Below, piece by piece: positions 6,181 through 41,673 of a stretch of 64,000 bases of DNA. The notes beneath the pieces are model-generated. The model worked only from the letters and a program-made list of their open reading frames with translations. It was not told the origin of the DNA and ran no database searches. The DNA comes from Candidatus Taenariivivens baikalensis (GTDB lineage: Bacteria > Omnitrophota > Omnitrophia > Omnitrophales > Aquincolibacteriaceae), in assembly GCA_009691445.1 (NCBI GenBank), contig SICL01000003.1:25834-89833 (forward strand). The letters run 5' to 3'. Position numbers and translations under genes: made by a program. Within the stretch, counting starts at the first letter, position 1, and each line of letters begins with the position of its first letter.

Positions 6181-9100
6181 GTGACCTCCGTTCCGAAAAA
6201 AATGATGAAAAATCTTCCTAAAAAATCAGTCGCCCTGATCACGGGAATTGCCTTTGCCGTCACCAGCTTTGTCGCTCCCGCGTCTTATGCCGCACCCGTT
6301 CGCTTGACGGTACCGGGTACCGCCGCACCGAGTACTGCGCCGATGCCCAAAGAGTTTGGAGAAATTGTCTCGGAATATCACACCCAGGGAAATCAGACTT
6401 CTGTCTTTCTTATCCAGGATGCTCACGCAATACCAGAAGCACAAAAAAACATTCAAAAAATTATTCGTTTTCTGGCAGACAACTACGGCGTTCAAACCGT
6501 CGGCGTTGAAGGTGCTTCCAAAGAACTCGATACACAAATTTTTAAAAGTTTCCCGGATGCAAAGCGCTTGCAGGAAGTCTTTGATGATTATATGGAAAAA
6601 GGGGAACTCACGGGAGCGGCGGCGGCTGCGATTTTTAGGCAAGGAGCAGAGAGCAAGGAGCAAGGAGTCAAACCCCATGCCCCAAGCACCATGCTCCATG
6701 CTAAGTTTTATGGCTTAGAAGACCAACCCCTCTACGAAGAAGGCCTGAAGCTTTATCAGGAAGCGGCAGGGAAAGAGGCCGACCTCAAGACGAAGTTGGA
6801 AGTTAGAAGTAAGAAGTTAGAAGAAGAGAAGACGAAAGCGTATTCCAAAGCATTACTTGCGATTGATGAAGTCTTGGGTGCTTTCAATGAAAATCACGCA
6901 AATCTGACGGATGTCCTCTTTCTTCTCTCCAAAATCCGCAAACCGGAAAAGGGAAGTGAACTCCGGGCCATTCTGGATGAAATGAAACTTGAGAAGTCGG
7001 ACCGGACTTCGAGTGTGATCCAGGTGAGACGGCTTGCAAAAGAAGTGGAATGCGAAATGACGCAAAGTGCAAAGCGCATAGCGCATAGTGAAAAAAATTC
7101 AGAAAAACGCTTTGCCCTTAGCGCTATGCTCTATGCCGACTTCCACGCTAAACTCCAGCAATTCAACACTTCCCAGCTCACGCCTCAAGCATTTGCGTTT
7201 TATCTCAAAGAAGTGATCACGGAAAACAAGTTACCCCTGAAAGTATCCGATCATCTGCTCGGATTAGTCCGCCATCAAAAAACAGTTCAGGAAATTCAGG
7301 GAACAAAGCTGTTCAAAGATCTTGAAACCTACGCAGCGGCCATCAAAGAATCCCTTTTTGAAAATGCCGGACAGCGGGACCTCGATCGCAAGACGCATCA
7401 GCTTCAGCTGCTCACCAAACTCACAAAGCTTGAGCTCGCGAGGGAAGAGTGGGAAGAAGTAAAAAGGTTAGAAGTCGGAGGTTGGAAGTTGGAAGGAAAA
7501 TCGTCTTCACTTCAAACTCCTCATCTGTCTTTCTACCGCAACGCCGAAGCCCGGGAACGAGCCTTCCTGACGAAGTTAGACGTTAGAAGTTCGAAGTTAG
7601 AAGAGAAAAACCGCAGAGGCTCGTTACTTCCATCCTCCAACTTCAAACTTCAAACTTCTATCGTGGTCGCTGGCGGCTTCCACACCCAGGGCCTGGCCCA
7701 CAATCTCAAAGCCCGTGGAATTTCCTATCAAGTCATTATGCCGCGTATCCAGTCGCTTCCTGAACAGTCTTCTTACCGGGAGCAGATGAAAGGGAATGTT
7801 TCGTGGTCTTCTTATATGAAAGCAAAAGATGGACGGGTTAATTTGTATGAAGCTTTTACACGCGCTACGCGCGATAAACTCTTGAAGTTAGACGTTAGAA
7901 GTTTGAAGTTAGAAGAAAAAGAAGGAAATCAACCTGTCCAACTTCCGACCTCTAACTTGCAACTTCTTAAGCCTTGGCGAGACCAAATCCTAATCGACCT
8001 CGCTCAAACCGAACAGCTCGACAAGGCCGGAGAGTACACGCGGTTCATTGACGAAATCAGCAGAGAGCATAGTGCAGACCTGCCCGCCGAAGCGAAGCGG
8101 CAGGCGGGGAGCAGAGGGTCTGACTCTATGCCCTATGCCCTTAGCTCTATGCATCAGAAGTGGCAAGCCGCCGTTAAAAAATTTACCGATGGAATAATCC
8201 GCCTTGAATCCCAGGGCCGGTACACGCCGGATAATATCGTTCGCCTTCTTCAGCCTGCGACGATTCTTCCTGAAACGGGATTGGGACAATTTAATCCCGG
8301 ACAAACCTTTCCAGTATTTAGAGAAGGTCCGATGAGCGCGGAAGGGTTAACGGGTAAGCCGGTGCGCGGGTTCACGGGTACGAGCGCTCGCATACCCGCA
8401 TACACGCGTACCCGCACACGACAACCTCGCTCCGAAGCAAGAAATAATCTGCAATTAGGAGGGCCAAATGGAACGATTCGGTGGGTAGACATGAAATGGG
8501 GAAGCCAGCAGCTTCAACTTTCAGAAGCCATTCAATCTATGAATGATCCTGACATAAGCATAGCTCAAACCATAAAGGCCATAAAAGATTTTTATCTTGC
8601 GATTCAAGAAAGCGGAGAGGACGGGATGTATGATAGCATCGACAAACAGGATATCCTGACTGGGAACCTGCCTAACTTTTTACGCGCCTTGGGGATGCCC
8701 AAAAGCGACTCCGGAGAATCATTAACAGAAGCAGAAGCTCAATTTTCTTTTAATTATTTAAAAGAGCGATTCCATGATTTAGAATCTTTGAACGTTTCGT
8801 TTACAGGTTTGAATAATCCCTCTCTCAAGATCGAAATCTACTGGTGGATTTTTGTGCTTCTGTTAGTGGCTGATCACAACACGGCATCAGCGTCATCCGC
8901 CGACATTCAGGCTCTTTCAGAGACTGAAGAACTTTTGGCTCTGCTGATCTGTGCTATTTCCAGCGATCATGTGAGAGGACAAATTTCACAAAATCCCAAG
9001 GATTTGATTGAATCAAGATTGCTGGACTTGACCCGTACACAGCCTTTGCTTGGAAAATCCATTTCGAAAATCATGCGGCATTGGGATCCTTGGATTTCTG

Positions 9101-15100: not shown

Positions 15101-18100
15101 TTAAAAAACTCAAGGACCTTCTCGTGGGTTATGAAGAATATGTCGCCGTGAAACTAAGTCCTGAGAGCGCCATGATTGCATTGAAACAATTAATTCCTCC
15201 TCACCTTTTCGGAAATACTCGTAAAATAATGGGCGCAAAGTTAATCGGTGCGATCATCCAGGAGACTCAGACTTGGGAACTTCTTACTCCATCCTTGAAT
15301 ACTGCGCTGATGTTCAATGCTGAGTTAATGATCGATTTTATGAAGGTGTCGCCCCCCAAACTCGATTCATGGACGCAACCGAATAAGAATCTGGACAAGA
15401 AAAAAGCAATAACGCTAGCGGATGCTCAATCGATGCTGGAATTGACCATAGAGGAACGACAAACAAATAGAACAACAGCCACTTTTATTATGAAAGAAGA
15501 TGGGATTTCCTTTACTGACATGATCGAAGCCGGATATAAAATTCTCGCCCAGGAAGATCCTCGAATTTCAAGAGACATAGTCTTCATTTCTCTCAATGGG
15601 AAAGTGTTTGCTAATGTTGCAGAATGCTTCGCCGTCCGAATGAAGGCAGGCGACAGGGCTCTCCTTACTTATCTCCGCTCAGAGGTGAGGACAAAGAAAA
15701 TTGTGGGACAGGATATTTCAACCCGGGTTAATCCATTACGTTCTGCAACAGTTCCCGCTGAACGGTTTCAACCCGCGTCAAAGTCCCACCAGGAACTTCG
15801 AAGACATGATCCGATTGCAAAGAGGTTAACGCCCCTAAAAAAACCGCAGGCGAAGGCGGGGCCCAATCTACCCCCAAATAATCGCTCCAAAGCGAGTATG
15901 AAACAGACGCCCGGAGAGCTGATCCAGCTCGCGAATGACTGGCTTGGGATGCATCTGTTAGTTTCCGAGCATGGAGTGACGTCCACGATTCACGTGGTTC
16001 TGGACTCGACGATCCAAAGGTCGACCGCGAGTCGAAAAGAGTATGATAATTCTATAGGGAACAACGTTGATTTTAATATTACTATCCGGGTGCCGACAGC
16101 CCAAATCACATCCGTGACAAAGCTTATAGCCCAGATTGATGGTGCCTTGAAAAGCAAGGGATTAGACGTCAGCACTCCCTCTCCCCACATTCCGGCAGAA
16201 GGAGAGATTTCCTGGTCTAGGAATCTGAAATCGGATATGAAATTTGACTTTGGACAAAATGCTTCTGATGAGGCGATTGGGGAAATGACGCAAAAGATTA
16301 ACAGGATTTTGAGGCGGCATCCCTTTGCCGGCTATAAGAATCTCTTTGCCGAACAGACACGCCATGAATTCTACGATAGTCATTTTGATGTGGAGATCTT
16401 GCCGGCCGGTGAACCTACTGTCGATCAGCCGAGAGGAGGGTATGTTGTGTATTCCTGGTGGAGTGGTATGCTCATTCAGGTGCGCGGGAACTTACTCACG
16501 GGTCCCAAGTGGAAGAAGAAGCTCGTGGAGGAAGTTATCAAACAATTTAGAAACTATGTGACCCGCTATAAAATGCGATTTTATGCACCAGCTTTAAAAA
16601 GAATTATACTCAAAGATCCGCCCTATCAAGGGCACTACTGGGGGGATCCTGACAGCGAACAGTGGAAGAGCTATCTAAGCAGTACGCAGGCACACGTAAA
16701 ACAAATTGAAGCCAAACTTAGAACGTTATTAAAGCCCCCCCCCGCAGTCAAGCGAGCTGAAGTGAGGACTCAAAACGATCTGGATCAGATGACCAATTAT
16801 CAAGATGTTGATATTTCGCAGATAGGCACGCACATCCGTGCGGAGCTGCGAAGTATCAATCTAAGCAATGCAGCAATGTCAACCCTCCGCCGAATGTTGA
16901 GTTTGACGGAAGCGGAACTGAACCCTCAAGGTTTGACAACGAGTAAGGTCTCAGCTATATATGTTTCTCCGGATGAGCGTGTTGCTATTGTGTTGCCGGG
17001 TATGTTGACGAGGGTGGAAGGTCAGACAGACCCACAACTTGTAAAAATCTTTCATTTAGTAGGCGCGGAAGAGGTCCAAAGTCATGGTGTACCGAGTAAT
17101 ATAAAGGATGTGTTGTTTCAAAATGGTGGCTTTACAGTCAGTTATTGGGATCCAACAAAAACGCCTGAAACCTTCCAAATTCTGGATCAAAAGCCGTGGG
17201 TTCAAAAAGTTGAAGACCGCTCCGAGGTGAGAAGTAAGAAGGCGACCGAGAGCACATTATCCGGAGGCCATACGAAAGTAGTTAAGCCACGCTTTGCGGC
17301 ATCGGCGAAAAAAAATGCTTCGGATTTTAATCTCCCCCCCGCTCAAAGGGAGCGCAATAAGAACTTGAAGAATGATTCGCCCCAGGACCGATCTGAGATT
17401 CGGAGAATTATTTCGGATGAGGTATTACGCGTGGTTTGGGCAGGAATGACAGGAGAGCCTGCAGAAAATGTTTCTTCCAAATCAGTTGGCCCTTTGACCA
17501 AAGTTTCCGCAAACGAGGCCGCTGAAATGATCATTGCGTTGAGTGAAACCTACTTCCAAAATCACGCGGCTGAAGTAACGGCATTCAGACAAACCGATCA
17601 AGTTTTAGCGGGCAGTGCTCAAAGGATTGCGGCGAAGATTGCGAGCCTCAAACAAACGGTTGTGATTCGCCAGACGCTTACAAATGAACAGCTGAAAGCA
17701 AGCGGTGATCCGCAGGCAGCCGTCCGTCAATGGATGAAAGCTGCCGGAAATTTAGCGGCATCCACCGATAAACTTTTGATTCACGTGACGCTTCCTGCCA
17801 ATTTCAGATTTAAAAATCTGGACTATAACCGGCTTGCCGGCTGGAAGGTCGTACCGACAGGGGACGGGGGATACGCGGTGGTTAATTCCACAGTGGATAC
17901 AAACGCCATTAACTTTAACAGCCTTATTCCCACACTAGTGATTTCTGATGAAGCGCTTGATCAAACCCAGGAAACACTCATTTCCGGCACCGACGCGCAT
18001 GGAAATAATCTGACACTGAAACCTGCTGATTTTGCCAATATTCTGACGGCGGGTGCCGGTTTTATTGCGGATAAACTTTCTTTGCGAAGCTGGATTGTTT

Positions 18101-18213
18101 CCAAAGGTTCGATTTCTTTCTTTGAAGATCAAAATGCCCTGGCTCATGCTGTTGATGCTGCACGTCTGATTCAAAGAGCTTTGGCTTCCAGAAGAACTGC
18201 GTACTCGGCGTAA
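6181..18213 (+). CDS. giant (4010 aa) secreted/membrane-associated multidomain protein with TraB/GumN/TIKI-like N-terminal region, embedded DnaJ J-domain and one internal TM helix
   Basis: uninterrupted 12 kb ORF; N-terminal signal-like peptide ([26 protein letters not shown]); [14 protein letters not shown]...VQTVGVEGA and later [19 protein letters not shown] resemble the GTxH...AGHL signature of the TraB/PrgY/GumN family; J-domain with HPD motif ([31 protein letters not shown]) at nt about 10234-10440; hydrophobic helix [22 protein letters not shown] at nt about 14540-14610; GTG start at 6181 (alternative ATG 6202). Confidence 0.75.
6640..6703. repeat. Family-B palindromic insert (agcaaggag.../...ctccatgct) in-frame inside the 4010-aa gene
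   Basis: agcaaggagcaaggag ... ccatgctccatgct is an imperfect inverted repeat; related copies at 7071-7137, 8061-8152 and 30586-30660. Confidence 0.6.
6790..6828. repeat. Family-C repeat (gaagttagaag iterations) in-frame in the giant gene
   Basis: gaagttggaagttagaagtaagaagttagaagaag; related to copies at 7466-7520, 7572-7659, 7884-7968. Confidence 0.6.
7071..7137. repeat. Family-B palindromic insert in-frame (gcgcatagcgcatag ... cttagcgctatgctctatgc)
   Basis: clear inverted repeat flanking about 30 nt; encodes ...FALSAMLYA... Confidence 0.65.
7466..7520. repeat. Family-C palindromic insert in-frame (ggttagaagtcggaggttggaagttggaag ... cttcacttcaaactcc)
   Basis: inverted repeat of the gaagtt/aacttc motif. 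Confidence 0.55.
7572..7659. repeat. Family-C palindromic insert in-frame (gaagttagacgttagaagttcgaagttagaag ... ccaacttcaaacttcaaacttc)
   Basis: long imperfect inverted repeat; arms encode [11 protein letters not shown] and NFKLQTS. Confidence 0.7.
7884..7968. repeat. Family-C palindromic insert in-frame (gaagttagacgttagaagtttgaagttagaag ... ccaacttccgacctctaacttgcaacttc)
   Basis: near-identical left arm to the copy at 7572; right arm inverted. Confidence 0.7.
8061..8152. repeat. Family-B palindromic insert in-frame (cagagagcatagtgcagacc ... ggtctgactctatgccctatgcccttagctctatgc)
   Basis: inverted repeat gcagacc/ggtctgac and gagcatag/ctctatgc; encodes ...MPYALSSMH... (compare MPSALSSML in the nuclease gene at 30586-30660). 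Confidence 0.7.
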
Positions 18214-29518: not shown

Positions 29519-30736
29519 TTGCCTGTCATGGAATACGGCGTACTAAGTACTGTGGAAAATAAAAACGCCAGAACTCAACGTGGTACGCAGCGCGCAATAC
29601 TCAGTACTGGTTATAGTTCCTACGCCGAACTTCGTGACAAGGTTCGGAAAACCCTTCTCGAAGGCCAGCGTAAAATTGAACTCGCAAAGGTCCAGACTTA
29701 TTGGGATACCGGCAAACACATTAATGAGCACCTTCGGATTCATGAAGGGCGCACCGAGTACAAAAAGAAAACGCTGATCAGGCTGGGTAAAGATCTTGAT
29801 CTGGACGACAGTGTCCTTCGGCGGTGCGCAGAATTGAAGGAGGGATTCCCGGATTTACCAATTCGTGCCGGCTGGCACAAATCTGGTAATAATAGAATAA
29901 TCTCTATTAAAAAATATCCCTGGGCCTGCTTACACTGGAGTCATTTTCGGGCACTTCTTCCTCTTGAGGACCTGAAAACCCGCTACGAACTTGCCGATCA
30001 AGCCGCAGAAAAAGGCTGGATTGCCGAAGAGCTCGAAGCAAAGGTGAGGAAGATCAATGAAGATATCAGAGAAAAAAATGGCGGCGGGGGAAAACATCCC
30101 GTTCGTCCCTCGGAGCTGCTGACGCCCAAACTCGGTAAAACCGGCATTTATCAAATGATTCAGGACGGGGACTCGCTGACCGTGGATCTTGGGTTCACGT
30201 CTTACTGCAAACTTCCCAAGAATCAGGCAAGCAAATTCAAAGCCGGGGATTACTGCCTTTGGAAAGGCGACGCGCCGCCGAAAAAAATCCAGGGTGCGCC
30301 TTCCGATTTATTTACTTACGAAGCCGAAGTGCTGAAAGTCGTGGACGGGGATACGCTCTGGCTCAAGATCTGGCTCGCGGACGATCTGTGGCTGAAGGAA
30401 AAGGTACGGCTGCGCGGTATCAATTGTCCGGAGATGGATACGAGGGAAGGGAAGGATGCGAAAAAATTCGTGGAGTCCGTCATTGCGAGCAGTGCGAAGC
30501 AATCTCGCATCCTTATTGCTACGACGAAGCCCGACAAATACGATCGCTATCTAACGGATGTGTTTTTGCCAATCAGCATGGAGCAGAGAGCAAGGAGCAT
30601 AGAGAATAAATCTTTGAACTCCATGCCCTCTGCCCTAAGCTCTATGCTTTTTCTAAACAACGAACTCCTCAAGCACGGCTTGGCCGAGAAGAAAACCAAT
30701 TACTCGTTTAGCGATTGGGGAGATTTGGAACGCTGA
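29519..30736 (+). CDS. fusion protein: DUF1016 (YhcG-type) N-terminal domain + staphylococcal-nuclease-like (SNase/thermonuclease) C-terminal domain; carries two in-frame palindromic inserts
   Basis: N-term: LHWSHFRALLPLEDLKTRYELADQAAEKGWIAEELEAKV matches the DUF1016 N-domain consensus (LPWSHYR.LL...D...R.FY...A...GWS.R.LE.QI); C-term: VVDGDTLWL...VRLRGINCPE...GKDAKKFVE...YDRYLTDVF is the SNase fold pattern (GDT...RL.GIDaPE...G.eA......V......DrYGR.la.V). Confidence 0.7.
   Translation: MPVMEYGVLSTVENKNARTQRGTQRAILSTGYSSYAELRDKVRKTLLEGQRKIELAKVQTYWDTGKHINEHLRIHEGRTEYKKKTLIRLGKDLDLDDSVLRRCAELKEGFPDLPIRAGWHKSGNNRIISIKKYPWACLHWSHFRALLPLEDLKTRYELADQAAEKGWIAEELEAKVRKINEDIREKNGGGGKHPVRPSELLTPKLGKTGIYQMIQDGDSLTVDLGFTSYCKLPKNQASKFKAGDYCLWKGDAPPKKIQGAPSDLFTYEAEVLKVVDGDTLWLKIWLADDLWLKEKVRLRGINCPEMDTREGKDAKKFVESVIASSAKQSRILIATTKPDKYDRYLTDVFLPISMEQRARSIENKSLNSMPSALSSMLFLNNELLKHGLAEKKTNYSFSDWGDLER
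30479..30530. repeat. Family-R palindromic repeat in-frame inside the SNase domain
   Basis: gtcattgcgagcagtgcgaagcaatctcgcatccttattgctacgacgaag; encodes VIASSAKQSRILIATT. Confidence 0.75.
30586..30660. repeat. Family-B palindromic insert in-frame near the 3' end of the nuclease gene
   Basis: gagcagagagcaaggagcatagag ... ccatgccctctgccctaagctctatgc; same family as the three copies in the 4010-aa gene. Confidence 0.7.
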
Positions 30737-30737
30737 T

Positions 30738-31325
30738 TTATTCCAGATCCCGATGAAACCCGATTCGCCGTTTTGGTTTCTCCGGTTCCGGTGCCGGCTC
30801 AAGCAGCTGCTTCAAGGCATCAAAGACGACCTTAAACTGCAGGTCATACTTTTTCTCCATTGCCTCAATTTTCCGGCGCAGTTCTTTGTGCGCATCCAGC
30901 ATCTGTCTGATTTTCGTAAAGGTTCGCATGATTTGAATATTCACCTGAATCGCCCGTTTGCTTTTCAAAACACTTGAGAGCATGGAAACACCCTGTTCAG
31001 TAAAAGCGTAGGGAACTGCCCGTCTCAATCCTCCCCAACTTGAAGTCACAAATTGTGACTTCAAGTTGGTAAACTCTTCCGCGCTCAATTGAAACATGAA
31101 GTCCGAGGGAAACCTGTCCTGATTTCTTTTGACGGCTTGGATCAGTGCTTTTGGTTTCACCTGATAAAGATCAGCTAAATCGAGACTAAGCATGACCTTC
31201 TGATTCCGAAGAAAATAAATCTTTTGTCGAAGGGTTTCGTGGGAAATAGAAGCAGTATTTGAATCTCGAGTTTTCATTTTGGGCCTCCTGGAGTTGTTGG
31301 ATGTTTTACTTACTCCGAAAGCCAA
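30738..31325 (-). CDS. ORF6N-domain protein (KilA-N/antirepressor-like), copy 1
   Basis: KVMLSLDLADLYQV...QAVKRNQDRFPSDFMFQL...VTSSWGGLRRAVPYAFTEQGVSMLSSVLKSKRAIQVNIQIMR matches the ORF6N consensus. Confidence 0.8.
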   Translation of the reverse strand: MAFGVSKTSNNSRRPKMKTRDSNTASISHETLRQKIYFLRNQKVMLSLDLADLYQVKPKALIQAVKRNQDRFPSDFMFQLSAEEFTNLKSQFVTSSWGGLRRAVPYAFTEQGVSMLSSVLKSKRAIQVNIQIMRTFTKIRQMLDAHKELRRKIEAMEKKYDLQFKVVFDALKQLLEPAPEPEKPKRRIGFHRDLE

Positions 31326-31454
31326 AAAAAAAGAAGAACCCGCGGAGGAGTTTCACTTTCCGCAAGTTCTTCGCCCGTTGAAATGATACCAAAAAAGAGG
31401 ACTGAATCAACCGTTTTGTTCATTTCCCGGTACATTTTTTTGACGCTAGCAAAT

Positions 31455-31610
31455 GCTAGAAAAAGATCGTTGATCAGAAAAAAGGGTGAGCGGGTGAATG
31501 AGTATGCGAGTGCGCGCGTTGAAATTAACCCGTTAACCCTTGCGCTTTTTCATTTAATTTCACCTTCGGCGGGTTTACTCTGTCCCTCGGGCGGGGACTG
31601 TCCCCTTGAA
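31455..31610. repeat. Family-H hairpin repeat, copy 1 (long form)
   Basis: ...gatcgttgatcag...gcgcgcgttgaaattaacccgttaacccttgcgctttttcatttaatttcaccttcggcgggtttactctgtccctcgggcggggactgtcccctt; about 90% identical to the copy at 32460-32600; the core hairpin ctgtccc-tcgggc-ggggacag recurs at 40520-40595. Confidence 0.8.
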
Positions 31611-31945
31611 GTTCTCAAGCACGGCTTGGCCGAGAAGAAAACCAATTACTCGTTTAGCGATTGGGGAGATTTGGAACGCTGATTTATTCCAGATCCCGAT
31701 GAAACCCGATTCTCCGTTTTGGTTTCTCCGGTTGCGGTGCCGGCTCAAGCAGCTGCTTCAAGGCATCAAAGACGACCTTAAACTGCAGGTCATACTTTTT
31801 CTCCATTGCCTCAATTTTCTGGCGCAGATCTTTGTGCGCATCCAGCATCTGTCTGATTTTCGAAAAGGTCCTCATGATTTGTATATTGACTTGAATGGCG
31901 CGTTTGCTTTTCAAAACACTTGAAAGCATAGAGACGCCTTGTTCC
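31606..31945. repeat. segmental duplication: copy of 30672-31010 (3' tail of the nuclease gene plus 3' half of the ORF6N gene)
   Basis: about 340 bp at >90% identity read directly from both places (ctcaagcacggcttggccgagaagaaaaccaattactcgtttagcgattggggagatttggaacgctgatttattccagatcccgatgaaacccgattc...). Confidence 0.85.
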
Positions 31946-32235
31946 GTGAATATATAAGGCAAACTTCGCCGTCCTCCACGTCCCATGTTTGAAGTCACAT
32001 TTTGTGATATCAAAGCTCTAACCTCCTGCAAAGTAAGGCGTTGCATAAAATCATCAGGAAATCTTTCCCGGTTTCTTTTGACCGCTTGAATCAAGGCCCC
32101 GGTTGTGACTCCATAAAGTAAGGCCAAATCACTATCGAGCATGACCTTTCTGCCGCGAATGAAATAGATCTTTTGCTCGATCGCTTCTGAATCGTGGATA
32201 GCAGGTGTCTTGGTTGGTTTGATGGTTTTTGACAT
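31684..32235 (-). CDS. ORF6N-domain protein, copy 2 (paralog of 30738..31325; C-terminal 60 aa nearly identical, N-terminus diverged)
   Basis: KVMLDSDLALLYGV...QAVKRNRERFPDDFM...VTSNMGRGGRRSLPYIFTEQGVSMLSSVLKSKRAIQVNIQIMR. Confidence 0.8.
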   Translation of the reverse strand: MSKTIKPTKTPAIHDSEAIEQKIYFIRGRKVMLDSDLALLYGVTTGALIQAVKRNRERFPDDFMQRLTLQEVRALISQNVTSNMGRGGRRSLPYIFTEQGVSMLSSVLKSKRAIQVNIQIMRTFSKIRQMLDAHKDLRQKIEAMEKKYDLQFKVVFDALKQLLEPAPQPEKPKRRIGFHRDLE

Positions 32236-32459
32236 AAAAAAACCCTCCTAAGGTTGTGATGTTAGGAAGGTCTGAGCTCGCCATCAAAAAAAAGGGACGA
32301 GCATCAAACCTTCGTAGATGCTCGTCCGCCAAGCCTTATATCGTGGGAGTAGTCTAATAAATTCACGAATCAAATCAAGAAGAAAATCAGAGATTTCTCG
32401 GAACTTTTGGAGTAAGAACCGCTTGTTATAAGTTGCTACTTGTGGTGAGCCTGTCGAAC

Positions 32460-32600
32460 CAGCAAAAGATCGTTGATCAGGAAACCCGAGTTCACGAGTG
32501 CGCGGGTTGAAATTAACCCGTTAACCCTTGCGCTTTTTCATTTAATTTCCACCCTCAGCGGGTTTACTCTGTCCCTCGAGCGGGGACTGTCCCCTTGAAG
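32460..32600. repeat. Family-H hairpin repeat, copy 2 (long form), 3' of the subtilase giant gene
   Basis: agatcgttgatcaggaaacccgagttcacgagtgcgcgggttgaaattaacccgttaacccttgcgctttttcatttaatttccaccctcagcgggtttactctgtccctcgagcggggactgtcccctt. Confidence 0.8.
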
Positions 32601-32901
32601 TTTTCGATGACAATGATAGCCTCGACGATTTCAGAAGTGTGTTCCGAAGGAACCTCGCCGATGGCGTTAGAAATTTACCGCCAGACCAGGGCTTTTGGAA
32701 ATACCTTTGTTTTTTTAGTGGGCGGCATGGCCACGGATTACACGGTGATCGGGCTTCTTTGGAAAAACCTCAGAAAAAAAACAGGGCTTTGGATGCTTGT
32801 AATCAACATTCCCCAGATTATTTTCTTCGGCTGGATCTTTAATCGATTTTGATTTTTGGTAATCGGAAAGCGTTGCCCAAAATAGACTCTGAAGTTTCAC
32901 C

Positions 32902-35900
32902 CTATCCTTGAAGTAATCTTGCGAGCTCAGCACGTTTCGCTACAATTTGAGCGCGAAGTTCTTCCATTTCCCACTTGGGCCACAGTGAATATTCCGGCGC
33001 CATTTTGATTATATTTTGGGCTTGCAGGTCAAATTTACTTAAGCTTAAAAAAGATCCAGAAAATAGCGGCTGTTTGTATTCAATATCAAATATCTTCCGG
33101 TTCACCTCGTTTCTGACAGCTCCTACGGTGTTCATAATCGAAGAATAGGATTTAGGCGAGTTTCCGGTCGTTCCATCAAAACTACTTTCAATTTGCATGA
33201 TTCTTTCATGAAGTAATTTGAGATTTTCGAGATTGTTGTCTATGTGAATTTCTGTGTAGGTTTGATCGCTGACAATCACATAAGGATCCCGGTCTTTTTC
33301 TAGAACCAGAGAAATGGATTTGTAATATCCTCCGCGCCTGTCGGGCGAGCGTACGAATGAGGTCGAATTGATTTGTGTAGGGGCCACTGCCAGAGTGGTT
33401 TCGCCTATGGTGATCGATTGGCCAATGTCAGCGGCAGGTATCTCCCATGTCTGATTTCTCCCGGTTTCTTTTCCGGTTTCAGGATTGTAGGTGATGGCAA
33501 GGGCCATTACGACGGTTTGGGTATAGGTATTATAGTTTTCATCCAGCCTTTTTTGGAGATGCCCTTGCACGAAAGTATCCGTGACAATCCTGGAAGGTTT
33601 AGCTGTGGTGGAGTAGTAGCTAATTTGCTGCTGCGTTTCTAAGAGATTTTGGGAATCAAATATATCAATCGTTTTTTCGAGCAGATTCCCTCGTCCGTCG
33701 AATTGACTCACAGTGGTTTGATGAGGTTCTTGTGTTCCGGAGTCAAAAATAGTTAAAGTCTCCTGAGTGGGGAAACCTTGCGGATTAATTATCTTCACAG
33801 TTTTGCTTAGGATTTGATTTTGACTATTGGTCACGGTCTTTGTTTCGTTGACATTGTCATCAAAATCTTTCACGGAGATTGTTTCTACCGAATTTCCATC
33901 TTTATCAGTCGTAAAAGTTTTGACCGGAGGATAGATAATATCTATTTTTAACTCGAGGAGATGCTGCTCTCCTAATTGAACTTTTCCGGTTGCAGGATCC
34001 GTGATGATCGATTGGTAAGCCATCTGGACTTTATCTCCCCAAAGAAAGGCATAATTGATAACCACCGGCCGGCCTTGAGCGTCTTGATTAAACTCTTCCA
34101 TTCGGTTTCCCTGTGGATCCACAAGCATTACAGCTTGGGCTGTTTTATGAAAGATTCTAAAAGTGTTTCTGATCTGATCATTTGCGGAAGGGATCTTGGC
34201 GTAGTCTTCAACCAATAAAAGAAGAAACCTTCCATCGGGAGTGGATTGGGGAATGAATTTCGGATTCGTATAGTCCATCCGATACCAATAATGTTGTGCT
34301 AGGTTCTTATAACCCGCTATATAGAGAGCAAATCCAACTTGCAACCCATTCTCAAGGTTGTTGCTTTTGACATCGTAGCGCCAAAAACCTCTGGGCCAAA
34401 GAGAGATGGTATTATTCAGCGTAGTGGCTCGTTCATAAAAAGAAATTTTATCGATCACAAGACCACTTGGTTTCGATAAATCGATTTCAAAAAAGAAGGG
34501 ATTTTTTTCCCGGTCCAAACCCCCGGCAAGGGCTTTTGTTTTGGAACTCAAAATATCCACTCCGGTCATATCCATTCCGGTCCAAAGGGAATTTTTGAGG
34601 GTAAGTGAGCCTGGAGATTCTTCAAAAGTGATAATGCTTCGTCCGCTGGCAGCAACCAGCAGAGGAGTTCCCTGAGAATTTTGAGTCAGGGTAAGGTCTT
34701 TGATAGGACCGAGATTTGAAAAATGGCCTGAGGCCAAGCGGTGTGGTTCTTTGGGGTTGTTTAAATCCCAGCTTTCAAGGGTCACTCCGCCATCCGGTGT
34801 AATTTGAGTGACATAAACCTTGGTGCCAAAGGCATACATTCCGTTGACACTCTCAGATGGAATAGTGCCTTCCACTTGGCCGGTATTGGTATTCACAATT
34901 TGAATACCCGAATTACCGCCAAGGTGAACCAAGACACGGGCTGAGTCAAGAACTTCGACAAGGCCCGCGGAACGCTCCACTGGATTTTGGGAAGATGGAC
35001 GTGTGAGCTTTATCGTTTTTTCTAATTTCAGATTTTTAGGCTGCGTGACATCATAAATTTCTAATATCATTTCCTGCTCCAAAGCAGGAGATTGAGGAAG
35101 GGATTTAAGGATATAGGCTTTATTCCCGGCAAGGGCAAAATCTTTAATCTCTGCAGGAGAAGAGTTTGATTCCGGACGGATGGTGCCAATTTCAGGCCCT
35201 AAAGTACCGTTAAGATGGTCGGCATAGGCACGGTCGCTCAGATCAAAAATATGGATAGTTGAATCCGGGCTCATGACATAGAGATAATTACCTTGAAGTT
35301 TATAAGACCGGACGTCTCCTATATAGACCCATTTTTCTTTAACGTCATATGAATTCAACATACAGACTTGTTGATTGGCACAGTCCGAGTAATTCGACTC
35401 GGACACGCCAGTCGCGGAATGACCACTGTGGGAATCTGACATTACAGAAAAGATGGGGGTGGGCATAAATTCAGTGCCTTGGCCCAGGAAAGAATTTTTT
35501 TCGGGTTTACTCCAGGGAGCCGTTGGTACAGGATCAGTATTCGTAGGAGGAGGAGTATTATTTTTTTGTTCAAGGGCGGATTTTAAAGCACCTTCGGCAT
35601 TGAGAATTCCCTTTCCAAGATATTGATCGGCCGTATAGGGTTGTGCGCTTTTTGTCAGGTCACTTAAAATTTGGTCCGGAGTGTACTGGGGATTTAAGGT
35701 TTTGATCAAAGCGGCAACGCCCGCAACCTGCGGTGCTGCTGCGGAAGTTCCATTGTAGGAATCATATTTTTCTCCGGGCATCGTGGAATGAATTCCAATG
35801 GCAGGGGCTGCAATATCAACATCATTGCCATAATTGGATCCTGCTGTATCACCCGGTTTCGTTCCAAACATGGCCCGGTGGTCTGCTTTGTCAGTTCCTC

Positions 35901-38900
35901 CGACAGTGATCATGCCGGGGGTATTGGCAAGTACGCGATCTTTAGTGTCCTTACCCTCATTACCTGCCGCGGCAACCACCACAATATTTTTAAGATGAGC
36001 AAAATAAGTCACATCTGAAAAGGATCTGAAATCACGGCCGGAACCCGAGGCCTCACCGCCTAAAGAAAGATTAATGATATCCGCATTATGAAAAATGGCA
36101 TAGCCCATGCCGCTAAGAACATTGCTCAGTTTAATATTAGTTCCTTCGTTTCCGACTTTAACTCCCATTAAAGTGGCCCACGGAGCCACTCCCATGACTT
36201 CTCCATCGGCTGAACGGGCCCCGATTATTCCTGCAACGTAGGTCCCGTGGAAATGGTTGTCAGAAATATCGTTACCATTTCCATTCGTAGTATCGAAATT
36301 CCAGGACAAAATATCATCGATGTGATTATCGTTATCATTATCAATGCCGTCAAAAAGCACGGCCAGTTCATCAGGGCTCACTTTGCCGTCTTGACGCGCA
36401 GCGCTCCATTCGATTTTTCCAGCACGAGTTCTAATGAGGCCGTCGATATCCTCCAGGCTAATACGCGGTTTCCCATCAGGCATAAAATCCTGGTTGAAAT
36501 TCGCATCGGCTGAAGTAATTTTGCCGTCCCCGTTCTGGTCGCCAACTGCGTAGGCAATTTCCTGGGCGTTGACCCAAACATTATTAAAAAGCGCGGGATG
36601 ATTGAAGTCCATTCCCGTATCGATGAAAGCTACTGTAACACCCTTTCCAGGTTGCGTTTCTCCCGGGTCCCACTGTCCATTATGGTTCAGATCAAACAAG
36701 GCCCATGCCTCCGGAACGTTCGTTTTGTCCAGATGCCAAAGCTCGGAAATATTTTGATTAAGAAGATTATTTAACTCGGCCGGTGACAAAGCATTGGAAG
36801 TAGGCGTGACAACTTGGAATAAAACATTGGGATCCACATACTCCACCCAGTCATTGTTTTCCAAAGTGCTCTTTGCATTTTCAAACGGATGCGCGGCTTC
36901 GTCATATTTCACCAGGTACATATTATCCAGAGCTTTTTCAGCGTCACTTGCTGGATTCATCGCGCCAAATAATTTTTCTACCGCTTTGACACCAAGATTC
37001 ATAAAAGCATTGGTGAGAGAAGAGGAGAAATCAGAAACTGTATTTTGAACCGCATCCTTTATTCCAGTTAAGAAATTCTTAAATCCTTCGACCGCGGATT
37101 TGGCTTCTTCTTTAAACCGTACGATCAATTCCCCAAAGACATGGTCCGTGGGTTTGGGCTGAGAAACTACCGGATTTTTTCCGGTGTCGGTCGACGTTGT
37201 CGTTTGGGTTGTGGTCCCGGTAGTTGTAATTGTCTGGGTCGTGGAAGTGGTGGTTGTGGTCACTACAGTTGATTGAATAGTATTCCCAGTGCTGGTTTCA
37301 ATACCATTAATCGCGGCCAAAGGAGTGCTGCTTTGAGTTGCGATAGTAGTAGCTTCTCCCGAAGAGGAAACATCCGGCGGCGTCTGAAGCGGCGGCACAG
37401 GAAGTGGGGTTGGTCTTAAATCATTGGCCGGAGGCTGCGGAACAATCACGTTAGGAAGAGGTGTTGCGGACGAATTTCCCGAAGAACTTTGTGCCGCAGC
37501 CATCTTCGGCTGATTTGAAAGCATCTCAGCCGGAGAATTAGGTTGAGCTTGAGACTTCTCAAAAATGGTTTTCTTTTGAAGATCTACGGTGATCCACTTT
37601 TGATTTGAAGCATTGTCCATGTCATAAATCAGGATTTGCACTTGAGTGTCCGAGAGAAGCCGGTCATCTTGATAATTCAAGTTATTAAAGTCATCACGTT
37701 GTAATCCTAAAATCCCTGTAACCTGTTCAGGATTCTGGACAAGCAAATCAAAGGCAAGAGAGACGTTCTCTTGGGCTTTGAGCGAAGCAGCATCAATCAG
37801 AATATGCGGTTTTTTTTCAGAAGGGTTATCTTTTTTTTGCAGTTCATCCAGATATTTTAGGGATTGATAGGTCGCCAAGTAGCCATTTCTTTCAGTTTCA
37901 AGGGGAGCAATGTTTGGATTGTTTCGGCGGTCAAGGACATGTATGGCCTCATGGGCAATCTTGGTGATGAGCCAGCGTTTTTGGGCTTCGGCATCCGGCA
38001 AAGCGGCAAACGCTTCATATCCCACGACGACCATTCCTGGGTTCTCCGTCAAAGCCAAGGCAAAACTTTCCTGATTAGGAAGTCCTTTTAAAAAAAGGAC
38101 GGGGATATAGCCGGGGTCATCAACAGAATCCGTTTGCATAAAGCGGGGCATGACGTTTGCTTGGACAAGAGATTGGTAAGCCTCAAGTACTTCTTTTTGA
38201 TGAGCTCTTGAGAAATCCAGAGACTCCCTAAGAATCGATTCATTCACGTCTCCCAGGTTGGTATTTTTTTCTAACCGCTTTTGGATATCCCCCAAAGTCA
38301 TATTGCGGGTATTGAAGCTGAAATTAACCTCGCCCGGGGAATTGGGACTACCCGCATCCGGAACAACGGTCACTTCGTACATGCCATTTCCTCGGTAGCC
38401 AAAAACGTAAACATAGGTTTTCCCTTTGTCAAGATTCGGCCAGTCCCAGTGCGCCATCTTGATATCTTTTAAGAGCGTAACCTTCCCATTAGTCTTGAAT
38501 GTCCCTGTGTTAGTGGCCTCGTCTATATTAAGCTCACCGGGCGTTTTTGTGCCGTCAATCGCATTAAGAGAAGAATCTAAATATTTTCTTTGAACAATAC
38601 GGTCATTTTCGTAACTAAAAATCGAATTGAGTTGATCACGAAAATAGTTTTCGGTTCGGCCTTGGCCGTTTATCTCCGGATTGTTTCGAATGACGCGGGA
38701 TGACCACACGAGTTCGGGTTGTCCGGCAGGATTATCATAATAACCTTCAATCAAACGCATTCGTCCCTGGCTATTATAGAAATAGGTCTCGTCGTTACGG
38801 CTGTTTCTTCCATCCTGGTACCAAACGGTTTGAGTTGGAATACCCGTAATCGCTTCATGACGGAGCGTCAAGGGGTTGTACCACGAAGTCATCCGCTCAA

Positions 38901-40349
38901 AATTAAGATCACTGGAGAACCAAGATGCAGAAAATACTTCTTGTGAAGGAGCCGGGACTTTTGTCTGTAACGGAGTGGATTCTTCCCGTAATGTGTAATG
39001 GTTGACGACAAAAACTCCTCCGACATTTTCGATGGATTTATCTCCGATCTGGGTCAAAATATTCAGAGTGGAAGTCGAAGGCGATCGATTGGAAGCCGTG
39101 CCGTTTTTAATAATTTTTTCAAGCTGTCCGGCATTGTTATATTGGAAGTTCATCGTTTCGCCGTTGGAGGCGGTGTCTTTGACGATGCGGCCATTTTGAA
39201 TGATTTGATGATGGACCACTCCAGAAATATCTGTGGATTCAGCTTCGATAGGAATGATTCCCAGCCCATCAAACACCGATGCGATACTAGAAATGCTTTT
39301 TGATTGAGCTTCGTCTGGAACCCATCGTTCGCTGTCAAAAAACGGCGGTTGATTTCTAATCGAGGGCATATTGAAAAGGTTCCCGAAGTTTTTTAATGCC
39401 AAAGGATCCTTGGAAAGAGAAAAGATCACTTTGGCAGGAAGGACCTCGACGACACGAAAGAAACCGCTTGTGCCGCTTACGGCTTCTTTATAAGTCATTG
39501 CGGCTCCGGTCCCTTGGAGTTCGCCTACATTTTTCCAAGTTGAGGAAGAAAGATCAAAACTTTTTTGGATGACGTAGCGTTTTCCGGCAGATGAGTTAAA
39601 AGACACCTCAATTTTCCCCTGGTGGATTTGAATGGATGATTCCTTTGCTGCCAGGGCTGGGATTTCTGCGGTCAAACGCATGGTTTGAAAGTCAAAAGTT
39701 GCTTTTTCAAGACCTGGAAATGTGGTTGATCGAGGCAAAGTCATTACGGCCTGAAGCAGCCGGCCGTTTTCATATTTGAATTCAATTCGGGGCGCTAAAG
39801 GGTTATTGATAAGACTCGTGGCGTCTTGCCGGAGCAGAGTGCCTTTGGTGTCGAATGATTGCACGACAAAGTCAGGATAAACAATGACTTGCGGCTTTGT
39901 CGCTGCTACAGGATTCGGGGGCAAACTCGAAGTATTTGAAAGAGTTTCAACTGGGGAATTGGCTTGCGAGACGGCAGCATGAGAGTTAGATTTTTGAATA
40001 GAAGGAGTTGGACTTACCGGTTTTGAATTTGCCAGCATCCAATGAGTGGTTGAGTTGTCCATAGCCGTGGAAGTCGTCGTGTCCGTGGTTCTCGTTGAGT
40101 GTTCTATGGATGATGCTGTGGTTGTTTGAGTTCCGGCCTGGTCGCCGGTCGCCGTACTTGTTTCCATCGACGTGTAATTCTTGGTTTGGATATAAGAGGT
40201 CTTTTCATATTGAGTAGGAACAGATTCAGCCAGGAGAGCCTGCGGGCCTAAGGTCAGGCATTGGGCCATGAGAAAGACAGAAGCAATCAAAGCGCTCACT
40301 GATTTTTTAAAAGCCAGCTTTGAGTTTAAGAGGGCGAGAAGTTTTTTCA
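32902..40349 (-). CDS. giant (about 2480 aa) secreted multidomain protein with S8 subtilisin-like peptidase domain, Thr-rich linkers and an HExxH-containing segment
   Basis: S8 catalytic triad contexts VAFIDTGMD (Asp), HGTYVAGIIGA (His), GTSAAAPQVAGVAALI (Ser); signal peptide MKKLLALLNSKLAFKKSVSALIASVFLMAQ; poly-Thr tracts; IAHEAIHVLD (HExxH); the track ORF extends to 40521, but the Met at 40349 with signal peptide and upstream aaggtaagg is the more likely start. Confidence 0.8.
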
Positions 40350-40519
40350 TAGATCTGTTTAACCTTACCTTTTTAGCAGACCGCTCACTTATTAAGTAAA
40401 AGATAACCCATTGGAGAGGGAATACAAGAACCCCTTTAAGGGAGTTCTCATTTTTTATAAGGATAGTAAGATTATATGGGAATGTTATGAAATGATTGAA
40501 TTTGAGATTTTGAGATCCC

Positions 40520-40595
40520 ATGCTGCGTTTTTCATTTGATTTCCGTCTTTAGCAGGTTTAACCTGTCCCTCGAACGGGGACTGTCCCCTTACCTT
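40520..40595. repeat. Family-H hairpin repeat, copy 3 (short form), immediately upstream of the subtilase gene promoter region
   Basis: cgtttttcatttgatttccgtctttagcaggtttaacctgtccctcgaacggggactgtcccctt shares ttttcatttaatttc...ggtttac-ctgtccctcg-rcggggactgtcccctt with copies 1 and 2. Confidence 0.75.
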
Positions 40596-40739
40596 GGACC
40601 CTGCGAAACCGCGTTAACCATTGCCCAGGAGGGAATCCCCGCGGTCATTCCTATTGAAATGTGCTATTTGGGATGGCAGGAATCACTCCAGCAGTTGGCA
40701 AATCTTATTGAACCGGAAATTGCTGGGTAAAAAGGAGGT

Positions 40740-40928
40740 TTGAAAAAAATTATGAAATCGAAAGCACTTATTGTTTTGGCTTTTATGGTCGCGACCTTTT
40801 ATAGTTTAGAGATTGTTATCATGGTGTCGGGAAAGCAGTTTGGGGTGCCCCTCATTCTTAAGCTGATTATTGCGGCCCTGTGTTTTTCTTACGGAATTAA
40901 AAATAGTCGGAGAGATGGGGATAAATAA
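40740..40928 (+). CDS. hypothetical small membrane protein (two hydrophobic helices)
   Basis: ALIVLAFMVATFYSLEIVIMV and LILKLIIAALCFSYGI; weak support. Confidence 0.3.
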   Translation: MKKIMKSKALIVLAFMVATFYSLEIVIMVSGKQFGVPLILKLIIAALCFSYGIKNSRRDGDK

Positions 40929-40974
40929 TGCAGTAGAGAAGGCAGTCGGCAGGAGGCAGGAGCGGTAAACCCCA

Positions 40975-41181
40975 GGTGACAGTCACCCAAACAGGGGACA
41001 GAGGAAAATTACTACGCTATTAGCGTAGTAGCTCCAAAACTTGCACCAATGGTGCAAGAAATAGGGAACTTAAATCTCCAACCATTGGTTGAAGATATCT
41101 AAAACGGGTCTTAAGGTCAAAAAAACTCTCGCCATGGGTGAGAGAAATGGGGCCAGAGTTTCTACACACGGTGTGTGCAGA
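40975..41181. other. array of six different short perfect hairpins/palindromes (13-21 nt each) with semi-conserved linkers; candidate structured ncRNA or protein-binding array
   Basis: ggtgacagtcacc; actacgctattagcgtagt; cttgcaccaatggtgcaag; ctccaaccattggttgaag; ctctcgccatgggtgagag; tctacacacggtgtgtgcaga. Three are followed by agaaatRgRg, two by ctccaaaac/tctaaaac. No ORF >=60 aa in the region. Confidence 0.5.
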
Positions 41182-41224
41182 AATGAGAGTTAGGTAGAAA
41201 GAATGCTATCAGTAACGCTGCCTC

Positions 41225-41673
41225 TTGATTTTTCCTGACCAAGATCTTTCACTAGCATTAGCTAGCCCTTTATTTTTTCTGAAAAAGCTCTGGAAGTTTC
41301 GGCCTGTCTTTTCTATAATTCTCCTCACTAGACGTGGCGGACGCGTGAAACCGGAAGGTTTGACGCTCCGCCTTTTTTGTGTGGCCCGCCAAGCTTTCCT
41401 AAACGAACAATTTTATGTGCTGATCGATCTCAAAGCGGGAAGGTTGACGCATCAGGATTTTTTTAGATGCAAATGTATGTTAATTATTACGACCGTGAAA
41501 TCCTGGAAAAGGATGATGATCCGACGGTGGGTTTGATCTTGTACGAAGACAAGAAAGAGGCGGTGGTTCGTTACACGCTCTCCAAAGCTAACCGACAAAT
41601 TTTCGCGTCCCGCTATAAGCTCTATTTACCAACTGAAGAAACGCTCAAGCATCAGATAAGGGCTAGAGCTTAA
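41225..41673 (+). pseudogene. degraded DUF1016 (YhcG-type PDDEXK nuclease) C-terminal fragment, frameshifted
   Basis: two ORFs in different frames (41225..41536 frame 2; 41467..41673 frame 1) together spell ...FCVARQAFLNEQFYVLIDLKAGRL...//...YVNYYDREILEKDDDPTVGLILYEDKKEAVVRYTLSKANRQIFASRYKLYLPTEETLK, matching the DUF1016 C-terminal consensus (F.ArQ....d..FyiDLLfY.R.L..LVaiELK.g.F....GQm.fYl...D......enPtIGliLC..Kn..vveYaL......IgVa.Y.L...LP.el); the frame switch sits at a T7 homopolymer (gattttttt) about 41455; the N-terminal half is missing. Confidence 0.65.

Follow-up and report, generated by a model that had tools for sequence, protein, structure and literature searches.

Candidate orphan REP-type repeats at rearrangement joints of a variable island in an Omnitrophica genome

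The 64-kb stretch of DNA analysed here (the window), which belongs to a Candidatus Omnitrophica MAG, contains four copies of a short palindromic repeat. By analogy with related loci these are probably orphan REP-type singlets of a known kind, located at rearrangement joints of a variable island. The island covers 28.3-42.4 kb and is bordered by the trp/two-component genes on one side and by yaiI-dnaK on the other. An initial annotation of the sequence had suggested either REP-like elements associated with a RAYT or recombination sites around a mobile subtilase gene. The former suggestion gains support from unrelated metagenome contigs, in which RayT-type Y1 transposase genes are bordered by inverted copies of this hairpin-plus-palindrome.

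Three copies in the same orientation had been reported at 31455-31610, 32460-32600 and 40520-40595, and all of them were found there on the plus strand. The first copy, c1, is a long form of approximately 150 nt (31457-31607, plus strand) with the REP core at 31575-31607. The second, c2 (32460-32596, plus strand), is also long; its identity to c1 is 91%, and a 15-nt indel sets the two apart. The longer element common to both aligns 31458-31616 with 32461-32605 at 91% identity. The third, c3 (40522-40590, plus strand), is a short form. The homology between c1 and c2 thus covers about 150 nt, whereas c3 shares only about 68 nt with either of them, and the gapped identity in this common part is 96% for c1-c2, 84% for c1-c3 and 85% for c2-c3. 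The 28-nt core CTGTCCCTCGRRCGGGGACTGTCCCCTT (equivalently, CTGTCCCTCGNNCGGGGACTGTCCCCTT) occurs without mismatches at 31580-31607, 32569-32596 and 40563-40590, always on the plus strand. Its chance expectation is 0, and none of 100 dinucleotide-preserving shuffles gave a match. The repeat is also represented by the sequence CTGTCCCNNNNNNGGGGACWGTCCCC and by the 68-nt unit.

A fourth, diverged copy, c4, which was absent from the initial annotation, lies in inverted orientation at 40975-41001, where the minus strand reads CTGTCCCC-TGTTTGG-GTGACTGTCACC. It has two mismatches to the motif (G3>T and C11>A), and these are mutually complementary, so that the 13-nt palindrome is retained; by our own estimate, the chance expectation of such a copy is about 1e-3. 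All four copies are extragenic, each being situated between called genes or gene fragments, and all fall within 9.5 kb of the 64-kb window. Two of the four result from a local duplication: c1 and c2 are not independent copies, and c3 and c4 are separate ones.

The conserved core of approximately 33 nt has the form T(T/A)AC/ACT - CTGTCCCT - CGRRC - GGGGAC - TGTCCCC - TT. The hairpin ctgtccc/gggacag proposed earlier needs correction, as GGGACAG, the exact complement of CTGTCCC, is absent from the plus strand. The actual pairings are either GTCCCT with GGGGAC (6 bp including one G-T pair, closing the 5-nt loop CGRRC), which is present in c1, c2 and c3, or the 13-nt near-palindrome GGGGAC-T-GTCCCC, which is perfect save for its centre. 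In c1 these parts are the stem arm GTCCCT at 31582-31587, the loop at 31588-31592, GGGGAC at 31593-31598 and the palindrome GGGGACTGTCCCC at 31593-31605, all on the plus strand. Both arms are invariant across the copies and the loop is variable (GG, AG, AA). Folding of either pairing is no better than that of shuffled sequence (z from -0.2 to -2.0). The copies begin with TTTAAC or TTTACT and end with TT, and this TT is all that follows the REP stem, in agreement with the earlier observation that a trailing T-run is missing. No GTAG/CTAC or CGTC/GACG adjoins the copies. REPIN doublets were not seen, as c1-c3 share the plus strand and are spaced by 1 kb or more; c3 and c4 have opposite orientations, yet 385 nt lie between them and it is their outer ends that face one another.

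Evidence for the REP assignment comes from metagenome contigs. The pattern CTGTCCC-N6-GGGGACTGTCCCC matched at least 120 metagenome loci. Since these loci were selected with a pattern derived from the window, 20 nt in common are there by construction, and the association with RAYT genes, together with additional flanking matches, is the sole independent evidence. A RAYT homologue detected by HMM is encoded in 18 of the 120 matches listed (693 kb in all), and among these matches 17 of the 18 RAYT genes lie within 107 nt of a motif. The encoded proteins match Pfam Y1_Tnp, and their highest-scoring model is NCBIfam NF047646, REP-associated tyrosine transposase (E from 1e-18 to 1e-22), far ahead of the IS200 model. 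The enzyme of locus L079, whose family is the closest of the RAYT families and is likewise annotated from Omnitrophica MAGs, obtains 80 bits with the RayT model vs 27 bits with the IS200 model, and some homologues bear the JGI label 'REP element-mobilizing transposase RayT'. In loci L079, L068, L040, L083, L122 and L123 an inverted pair of motifs flanks the RAYT gene, and the 13-nt palindrome is on the outer side. At the right end, the REPs of L122 and L079 have the form (G)TTTAAC/GTAAC-CTGTCCCC-loop-GGGGACTGTCCCC(TT). They are matched by c3 (GTTTAAC-CTGTCCCT-CGAAC-GGGGACTGTCCCCTT), whose 5' tag GTTTAAC recurs unchanged in the right-end REPs next to the RAYT of L122. A 39-nt stretch of c3 aligns at 92% with solo copies from L017 and L120. 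The approximately 40 nt upstream of the hairpin, common to c1-c3, had no counterpart in the other loci compared.

The motif-linked RAYTs are only 25-44% identical to each other, and their host contigs have a GC content of 35-70%. Among 2.9 million viral contigs the motif had 0 matches with either the strict or the relaxed pattern. An over-strict pattern with the loop fixed as TCGNNC had one match in the GTDB species genomes, on a high-GC Solirubrobacteraceae contig, which looks like a chance occurrence. Literature searches for the palindrome string yielded no bacterial description.

The window repeats resemble the known REP/RAYT systems (Nunvar 2010; PMC3116915; PMC3479197; PMC5581495) in several respects. 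Firstly, they are short extragenic stem-loops or palindromes with invariant arms and a variable loop. Secondly, inverted copies of the identical motif are found on either side of a single RayT-type Y1 HUH gene in related contigs, and RAYTs are known to be single-copy genes flanked by REPs (PMC5581495). Finally, orphan copies occur away from the enzyme gene. The differences are the absence of a GTAG or CGTC tag and of REPIN doublets, a stem of only 6 bp with the 5' arm repeated on its 3' side, a small number of copies, a copied unit extending 40-120 nt beyond the hairpin, and the lack of a RAYT within 64 kb. The two REP superfamilies described in PMC3733652 carry GTAG or CGTC end tags. The low copy number is compatible with RAYT biology, because the 16-mers flanking RAYTs of groups 1 and 4 occur only about 12-14 times per replicon (PMC5581495).

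A search of the 64-kb window for a recombinase or a RAYT, as proposed in the initial annotation, revealed neither, and no integrase or transposase was found in it. A tblastn search of the window for RAYT remnants, first with 9 RAYT proteins and later with 129, produced matches at noise level only; suggestive ones among them fall at 40405-40467 (plus strand) and at 40989-41665 (both strands). RAYT profile HMMs run against ORF segments and against translations with stops as X yielded nothing above background across the window. The region of about 40 nt upstream of the hairpin may be what is left of a RAYT C-terminus (FKIY to FFI-stop) or N-terminus (MKKRKG) after decay; since the profile searches gave nothing above background, this is a lead only. 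As the cognate RAYT is not in the 64 kb, the four copies are read as orphan singlets, and as the window contains no RAYT or detectable remnant of one, the link between REP and RAYT is drawn for this genome by analogy only. The REP core would be recognised on single-stranded DNA by a RAYT, a Y1 HUH endonuclease, and then cut and copied; the copies would have been made by a RAYT encoded elsewhere in this genome. The unit copied in this lineage would exceed the hairpin, covering about 68 nt in c1-c3 and about 150 nt in c1 and c2.

The copies are situated next to rearranged genes. Repeats c1 and c2 are parts of a mosaic tandem duplication of an ORF6N unit of approximately 950-990 bp. Unit 1 (30662-31607) consists of the last 75 nt of a DUF1016_N-SNase gene, ORF6N-1 (30738-31277, minus strand) and c1. 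Unit 2 (31608-32605) consists of a duplicate of the SNase 3' fragment (31608-31682), ORF6N-2 (31684-32235, minus strand) and c2. The identity between the units changes along their length, being 94%, 59%, 43% and 91% in this order; the middle of the duplication has since been replaced or has diverged. The novel joint lies 6-9 nt from c1. Only one partner of the joint has a REP, the other one being inside coding sequence, and the partners share only the 9-nt microhomology GAAsTyyTC. ORF6N homologues were also found on two other contigs (L125 and L126, with 80% and 67% identity), and there the element is absent.

The right flank of each plus-strand copy is a gene fragment lacking its 5' part, 9-17 nt away in the case of c2 and c3. 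About 17 nt after c2 there is an internal fragment of an ArsP_1/SaoE-type permease gene (32613-32852, plus strand; profile positions 56-133 of 294). The fragment beyond c3, which begins about 9 nt from it, is the C-terminal part of an AHSA1/SRPBCC-like gene (40599-40730, plus strand; profile positions 87-125 of 125), although this match is weak (E 4e-4, 21.1 bits vs the cut-off of 22.1). The earlier proposal of recombination sites thus holds in a weaker form, insofar as the copies mark rearrangement joints, with c1 at the joint of the duplication and c2 and c3 abutting 5'-truncated genes, but not in the sense of cassette sites. Shyamala, Schneider and Ames reportedly described in 1990 REP sequences at the join-points of tandem chromosomal duplications in Salmonella. 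The situation of c1 is similar, in that the novel joint of the duplication follows this REP at a distance of 6-9 nt, except that in the window one joint partner only carries a REP. The hairpins may have promoted the breaks rather than merely survived beside them.

The giant Peptidase_S8 (subtilase) gene encodes 2482 aa and occupies 32902-40350 on the minus strand between c2 and c3; the upper coordinate, previously given as 40349, is corrected. The initial annotation had placed c2 and c3 right beside the gene, as would be expected of direct repeats around an inserted cassette. The gene is indeed located between the two copies, but the permease fragment separates c2 from its stop codon. A version of this interpretation in which the copies are att or cassette-boundary sites of site-specific recombination of an integron-like or island type, with c2 and c3 left by insertion of the subtilase gene and with c1 and c2 bounding an ORF6N cassette, is in our opinion improbable. 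It would account for the common orientation of the three main copies, for their delimiting of gene-sized units (ORF6N-2 and the subtilase gene) and for the broken gene at each right flank. Integron attC arrays likewise alternate gene-sized units with imperfect palindromes of 60-150 nt that all point the same way, and GTTTAAC of c3, and of c3 only, fits the attC inverse-core consensus RYYYAAC. However, the window contains no intI or other integrase or recombinase, and no R''/R' core pair. No copy has a GTTRRRY core site at its 3' side, and c1 and c2 read GTTTACT. The genes are on the opposite strand, and the neighbours of the repeats are gene fragments rather than promoterless cassettes. Further, c2 and c3 share only about 68 nt at 85%, with low identity outside the hairpin, and the segment between them includes the unrelated permease fragment. 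The two ORF6N homologues on other contigs lack the element, and elsewhere the motif flanks RAYT genes. Nothing in these data indicates that c2 and c3 bracket the subtilase gene because a cassette was inserted. The gene is a neighbour of the repeat and not demonstrably part of a mobile unit.

The 13-bp palindrome GGGGACnGTCCCC could also be the operator of a dimeric transcription factor, within an upstream module shared by the minus-strand genes ORF6N-1, ORF6N-2 and subtilase. Such a role would agree with the nearly perfect symmetry of the palindrome, with the position of each copy 170-360 nt upstream of a minus-strand start codon, and with the presence of genes for a sigma-54 activator and HTH proteins nearby. 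It is nevertheless improbable, as the distances to the start codons vary approximately two-fold, the element is not flagged by a consensus promoter scan, and in other contigs the motif follows stop codons and borders RAYT genes at either end. Involvement of the element in ORF6N regulation in particular was rejected, since the homologous genes in L125 and L126 do without it. A candidate outward sigma-70 promoter TTGAY-17-TAnnCT, seen in c3, L120 and L092, was rejected as well, being weak in c1 and c2 and not picked up by the consensus scan.

Very improbable is the reading in which c2 and c3, and likewise c1 and c2, are the subterminal hairpins at the left and right ends of non-autonomous elements in the IS200/IS605 style; a Y1 transposase acting in trans would move their cargo, including the 7.4-kb subtilase gene, in the form of single-stranded circles. 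According to PMC6006769, the ends of IS200/IS605 elements bear similar hairpins, directly oriented on one strand and recognised by a Y1 HUH enzyme, and the window hairpins are also in direct orientation. Both IS200/IS605 with the non-autonomous PATEs and the motif-linked enzymes belong to the Y1 HUH superfamily (Pfam Y1_Tnp), which recognises single-stranded hairpins. However, the motif-linked enzymes score as RayT rather than IS200 TnpA, and, where an enzyme is present, its own hairpins are inverted, which is the RAYT pattern. No tnpA (Y1_Tnp) or tnpB ORF occurs between the window copies, the element would have to include the dead permease fragment, and a second instance of such a cargo unit was not found.

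A small RNA, a transcription terminator or an mRNA-stabilising stem-loop is hardly credible: the long form in c1 and c2 does have, immediately before the core, an imperfect GC-rich hairpin with TTTTT behind it, and a 4-bp helix upstream of the REP stem pairs in c1-c3 with one compensatory change, but the covariation in these three sequences is indistinguishable from shuffles (343 of 500), fold z-scores are ordinary, the terminator scan reports nothing at the copies, whose REP stem lacks a T-run, there is no plus-strand gene upstream of c1 or c2 to be terminated, and Rfam gave no relevant match over the whole window at gathering thresholds or in two sub-regions at E-value thresholds, where only eukaryotic snoRNA and miRNA models appeared at chance level. 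No tRNA or tmRNA genes were found in the window.

The reading as orphan REP-type singlets has a practical consequence for annotation: the appropriate label for the repeat is REP-like element rather than att site, and on this evidence the subtilase gene should not be labelled a mobile cassette. A far-reaching extension, which we consider unlikely, is that a deep clade of RAYTs has kept one palindrome (GGGGAC-W-GTCCCC) across phyla, and that the Omnitrophica singlets serve as break-and-join points or as IS200-like ends shuffling island cargo, including giant surface-protease genes. If true, this would amount to a REP superfamily distinct from the GTAG and CGTC classes and directly involved in the turnover of islands and giant genes. 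The repeat itself represents a class of REP sequences without a tag (GGGGACWGTCCCC), which in Omnitrophica and other uncultivated lineages is linked to RayT-type genes. Very divergent RAYTs keep the same palindrome. As a duplication joint and truncated genes are found right at the hairpins, a role of REPs in illegitimate recombination becomes testable in these genomes.

The repeat described in the initial annotation as three same-strand copies is borne out both by reading of regions 31200-33000 and 40250-40900 and by a repeat finder. Copies c1 (31457-31607), c2 (32460-32596) and c3 (40522-40590) share the core CTGTCCCTCGNNCGGGGACTGTCCCCTT at 31580-31607, 32569-32596 and 40563-40590 with no mismatches, variation within the core being confined to two loop bases (GG, AG, AA). 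No matches to the core were found in 100 dinucleotide-preserving shuffles. The long form of about 150 nt is common to c1 and c2 (31458-31616 and 32461-32605, 91% identity, one 15-nt indel), and c3 has only about 68 nt in common with them; the gapped identities are 96% for c1-c2, 84% for c1-c3 and 85% for c2-c3. A fuzzy search revealed c4, a diverged fourth copy in inverted orientation at 40975-41001. Its two substitutions are complementary and thus the palindrome is kept (GGTGACAGTCACC); by our own estimate, the chance expectation of such a match is about 1e-3.

The hairpin arm had been given as GGGACAG, but the plus strand has GGGGACTG instead. Pairing can occur as GTCCCT/GGGGAC (6 bp, 5-nt loop) or as the 13-nt near-palindrome GGGGAC-T-GTCCCC. 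Neither DNA nor RNA folding makes the element more stable than shuffled sequences (z from -0.2 to -2.0); the conserved feature is the sequence and not an unusually strong structure. The element has no match in Rfam, and scans found no terminators or consensus promoters at the copies. In c1-c3 the hairpin is preceded by a common stretch of about 40 nt, GCGYTTTTTCATTTRATTTCC...GGTTTA, that is matched in none of the fetched loci. A 4-bp helix within it keeps its pairing throughout c1-c3, with a single compensatory change; however, 343 of 500 shuffles do as well, and with three sequences only it is indistinguishable from chance.

The metagenome scan with the pattern CTGTCCC-N6-GGGGACTGTCCCC produced at least 120 loci, and the same pattern had no matches in 2.9 million viral contigs. 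The majority of the listed matches have a fuller form, GGGGACTGTCCCC-loop-GGGGACTGTCCCC. Their contigs differ widely in GC content; the matches often lie right behind stop codons and sometimes occur several times per contig. Clustering of the neighbouring ORFs among the listed loci yielded one recurrent family of 150-230 aa with the Pfam domain Y1_Tnp, whose best-scoring model is NCBIfam NF047646, the REP-associated tyrosine transposase or RAYT (E from 1e-18 to 1e-22), REP being a short palindromic hairpin element. The protein from metagenome locus L079 reaches the 80-bit equivalog cut-off of this model and scores 27 bits with the IS200 model. By HMM search, a RAYT-type gene is present in 18 of the 120 listed loci (693 kb in total), in all but one of which (17) the motif is at most 107 nt away. 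In L079, L068, L040 and L083 inverted copies of the motif lie on both sides of the gene, the 13-nt palindrome forming the outer end, and two more homologues fetched via the protein database (L122, L123) have the same arrangement. RAYT/REP systems are defined by just this layout (PMC5581495; PMC3116915, PMC3479197).

The RAYTs of L005, L010, L015, L040, L068, L079, L083, L122 and L123 are all flanked by GGGGAC(A/T)GTCCCC. Their mutual identity is only 25-44% and their contigs have 35-70% GC; judged from these sequences, conservation of the 13-nt palindrome appears unusually deep for a REP recognition sequence, although the sample was chosen by that motif. Dense motif arrays occur in L003, L028, L060 and L070, among them an 18-nt tandem of GGGGACTGTCCCC-ACCCC (L003), at least 12 palindromes in 1 kb beside the RAYT (L060), and a REP-containing unit as a 164-bp tandem duplicate (L070).

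Among the fetched loci, the copies most closely related to those in the window have a T(T/C)AAC tag ahead of the stem, like c3 (GTTTAAC-CTGTCCCT...), and in L122, L123 and L079 the TAA of this tag is the RAYT stop codon. c3 is 92% identical over 39 nt to solo copies in L017 and L120. The RAYT family of L079 is annotated from metagenome-assembled genomes of Omnitrophica, the same phylum as the window, whose ORF6N-2 protein is 100% identical to an NCBI protein from a Candidatus Omnitrophica assembly (116-kb contig). TTTAAC-tagged solo copies from different organisms, in L120 (5900-6004), L092 (minus strand, 799-900) and, among c1-c3 of the window, c3, lie about 35 nt 3' of a terminator-like hairpin with a T-run, and have a TTGAY-17 nt-TAnnCT arrangement directed into the REP, which is weak in c1 and c2. 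Possible explanations are a favoured insertion context and a weak promoter pointing outward; the consensus scan does not flag the arrangement.

The core is best read as a REP-type hairpin that belongs to a RAYT-type Y1 HUH system, with the window copies as orphan singlets; the REP-like nature proposed initially gains its support from the inverse flanking of RAYT-type genes by this motif in other contigs. By analogy with the characterised RAYT/REP and IS200/IS605 enzymes (PMC3479197, PMC6006769), the enzyme would be expected to recognise the hairpin once folded in single-stranded DNA, and to cut alongside it. No RAYT is present in the 64-kb window. Recombinases, integrases and transposases were sought with Pfam across essentially all larger ORFs except the 4010-aa giant ORF (6181-18213), and none was found; tblastn with 129 RAYTs gave noise only and stop-tolerant profile searches gave nothing above background, and thus short matches upstream of c3 and right of c4 are leads only. 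A low number of local copies is in keeping with published RAYT groups in which the 16-mers beside the gene number just about a dozen per replicon (PMC5581495).

A variable island spanning some 14 kb (28.3-42.4 kb) holds the copies. To its left are the trp operon and a histidine kinase/sigma-54 regulator, to its right yaiI and dnaK, all of them core genes. The island contains an HTH-Fic pair, a DUF1016_N-SNase gene (29519-30736), two ORF6N genes on the minus strand, a subtilase gene (2482 aa, 32902-40350, minus strand), an orphan 68-aa C-terminal fragment of YhcG_C (41467-41673) and a RelE-like/HTH pair. In 29519-30736, DUF1016_N is fused to an SNase domain where the YhcG_C PDDEXK nuclease is usual, and the orphan YhcG_C fragment lies 11 kb away on the opposite side of the island; the two may derive from a YhcG-type gene that was split or remodelled. 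Directly right of c4, within 40960-41200, there is a run of five more palindromes, all different, each near-perfect, 19-21 bp long with a 1-nt centre (e.g. TACTACGCTA-T-TAGCGTAGTA, CTTGCACCA-A-TGGTGCAAG) and set at a spacing of 29-51 bp with A-rich linkers. This 241-nt stretch folds far better than shuffled sequences (-80.4 kcal/mol, z -5.4, 0 of 200 shuffles), has no match in Rfam, and its palindromes are found neither in the rest of the window nor in the fetched loci. It could be a structured RNA or a set of protein-binding sites. In both L122 and L123 (1-10588 in each) the RAYT is just 3' of a giant gene, encoding 7140 and 4453 residues respectively, and the window's own giant ORFs encode 4010 and 2482 aa. 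Genes of this size appear to be frequent in such Omnitrophica-like genomes, and their nearness to REP/RAYT may be no more than coincidence.

Alignment of 30640-31625 with 31586-32615, with identity measured blockwise, maps a mosaic tandem duplication whose units end with c1 and c2. The SNase 3' end and the C-terminal half of ORF6N are 94-98% identical (94% for the whole block, 30662-30999 and 31608-31945), the N-terminal half with the DNA-binding ORF6N domain about 59% (31000-31260 and 31946-32215), the 5' region including the promoter 43%, that is, essentially unalignable (31261-31458 and 32216-32460), and the 150-nt element 91% (31458-31616 and 32461-32605). The novel joint, CCCCTT GAAGTT/CTCAAGCACGG, is 6-9 nt past the REP and falls where the sequence after the REP (GAAGTTTTC) and the SNase gene (GAACTCCTC) share 9 nt of microhomology. 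Thus c1 and c2 are one ancestral copy duplicated along with its ORF6N neighbour, and the separate copies are c1/c2 (counted once), c3 and c4. The middle of one unit was subsequently replaced or diverged, and the ORF6N pair looks like a specificity-domain replacement following duplication. Two ORF6N homologues elsewhere (80% and 67% identity) have neither the REP nor the 150-nt element nearby; the element therefore does not belong inherently to ORF6N gene regulation or to a cassette with ORF6N.

A broken gene on the plus strand begins a few bases 3' of each of c1-c3: a second copy of the SNase gene's final 75 nt (EVLKHGLAEKKTNYSFSDWGDLER and stop) at c1, an internal piece of an ArsP_1/SaoE-type permease (profile positions 56-133 of 294) at c2, and, by a weak match, the C-terminal end of an AHSA1-like gene (87-125 of 125) at c3. 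The copies lie at rearrangement joints: c1 at that of the duplication, c2 and c3 at 5'-truncated genes. Nicking or pausing at the hairpin could promote illegitimate joining, for which we would give about even odds at best; alternatively, such elements could merely accumulate in a junk-rich island. The initial annotation also proposed that c2 and c3 are direct repeats left by insertion of a subtilase cassette. They do lie on either side of the subtilase gene in the same orientation, but nothing else supports insertion: there is no recombinase and there are no core sites, c2/c3 identity beyond the hairpin is modest, the bracket encloses a dead permease fragment, the flanks are unrelated, and the motif has a clear other identity. 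An IS200-like cargo element with direct hairpins at its ends, moved in trans, is possible in principle but improbable, and has no positive evidence.

RAYT/REP systems in general are already well known. The class GGGGACWGTCCCC differs from the tagged REPs (PMC3733652) in having no GTAG or CGTC tag, and the searchable literature yielded no account of it. The new points are modest: the untagged class itself, the retention of its palindrome beside divergent RAYTs, and its occurrence in Omnitrophica.
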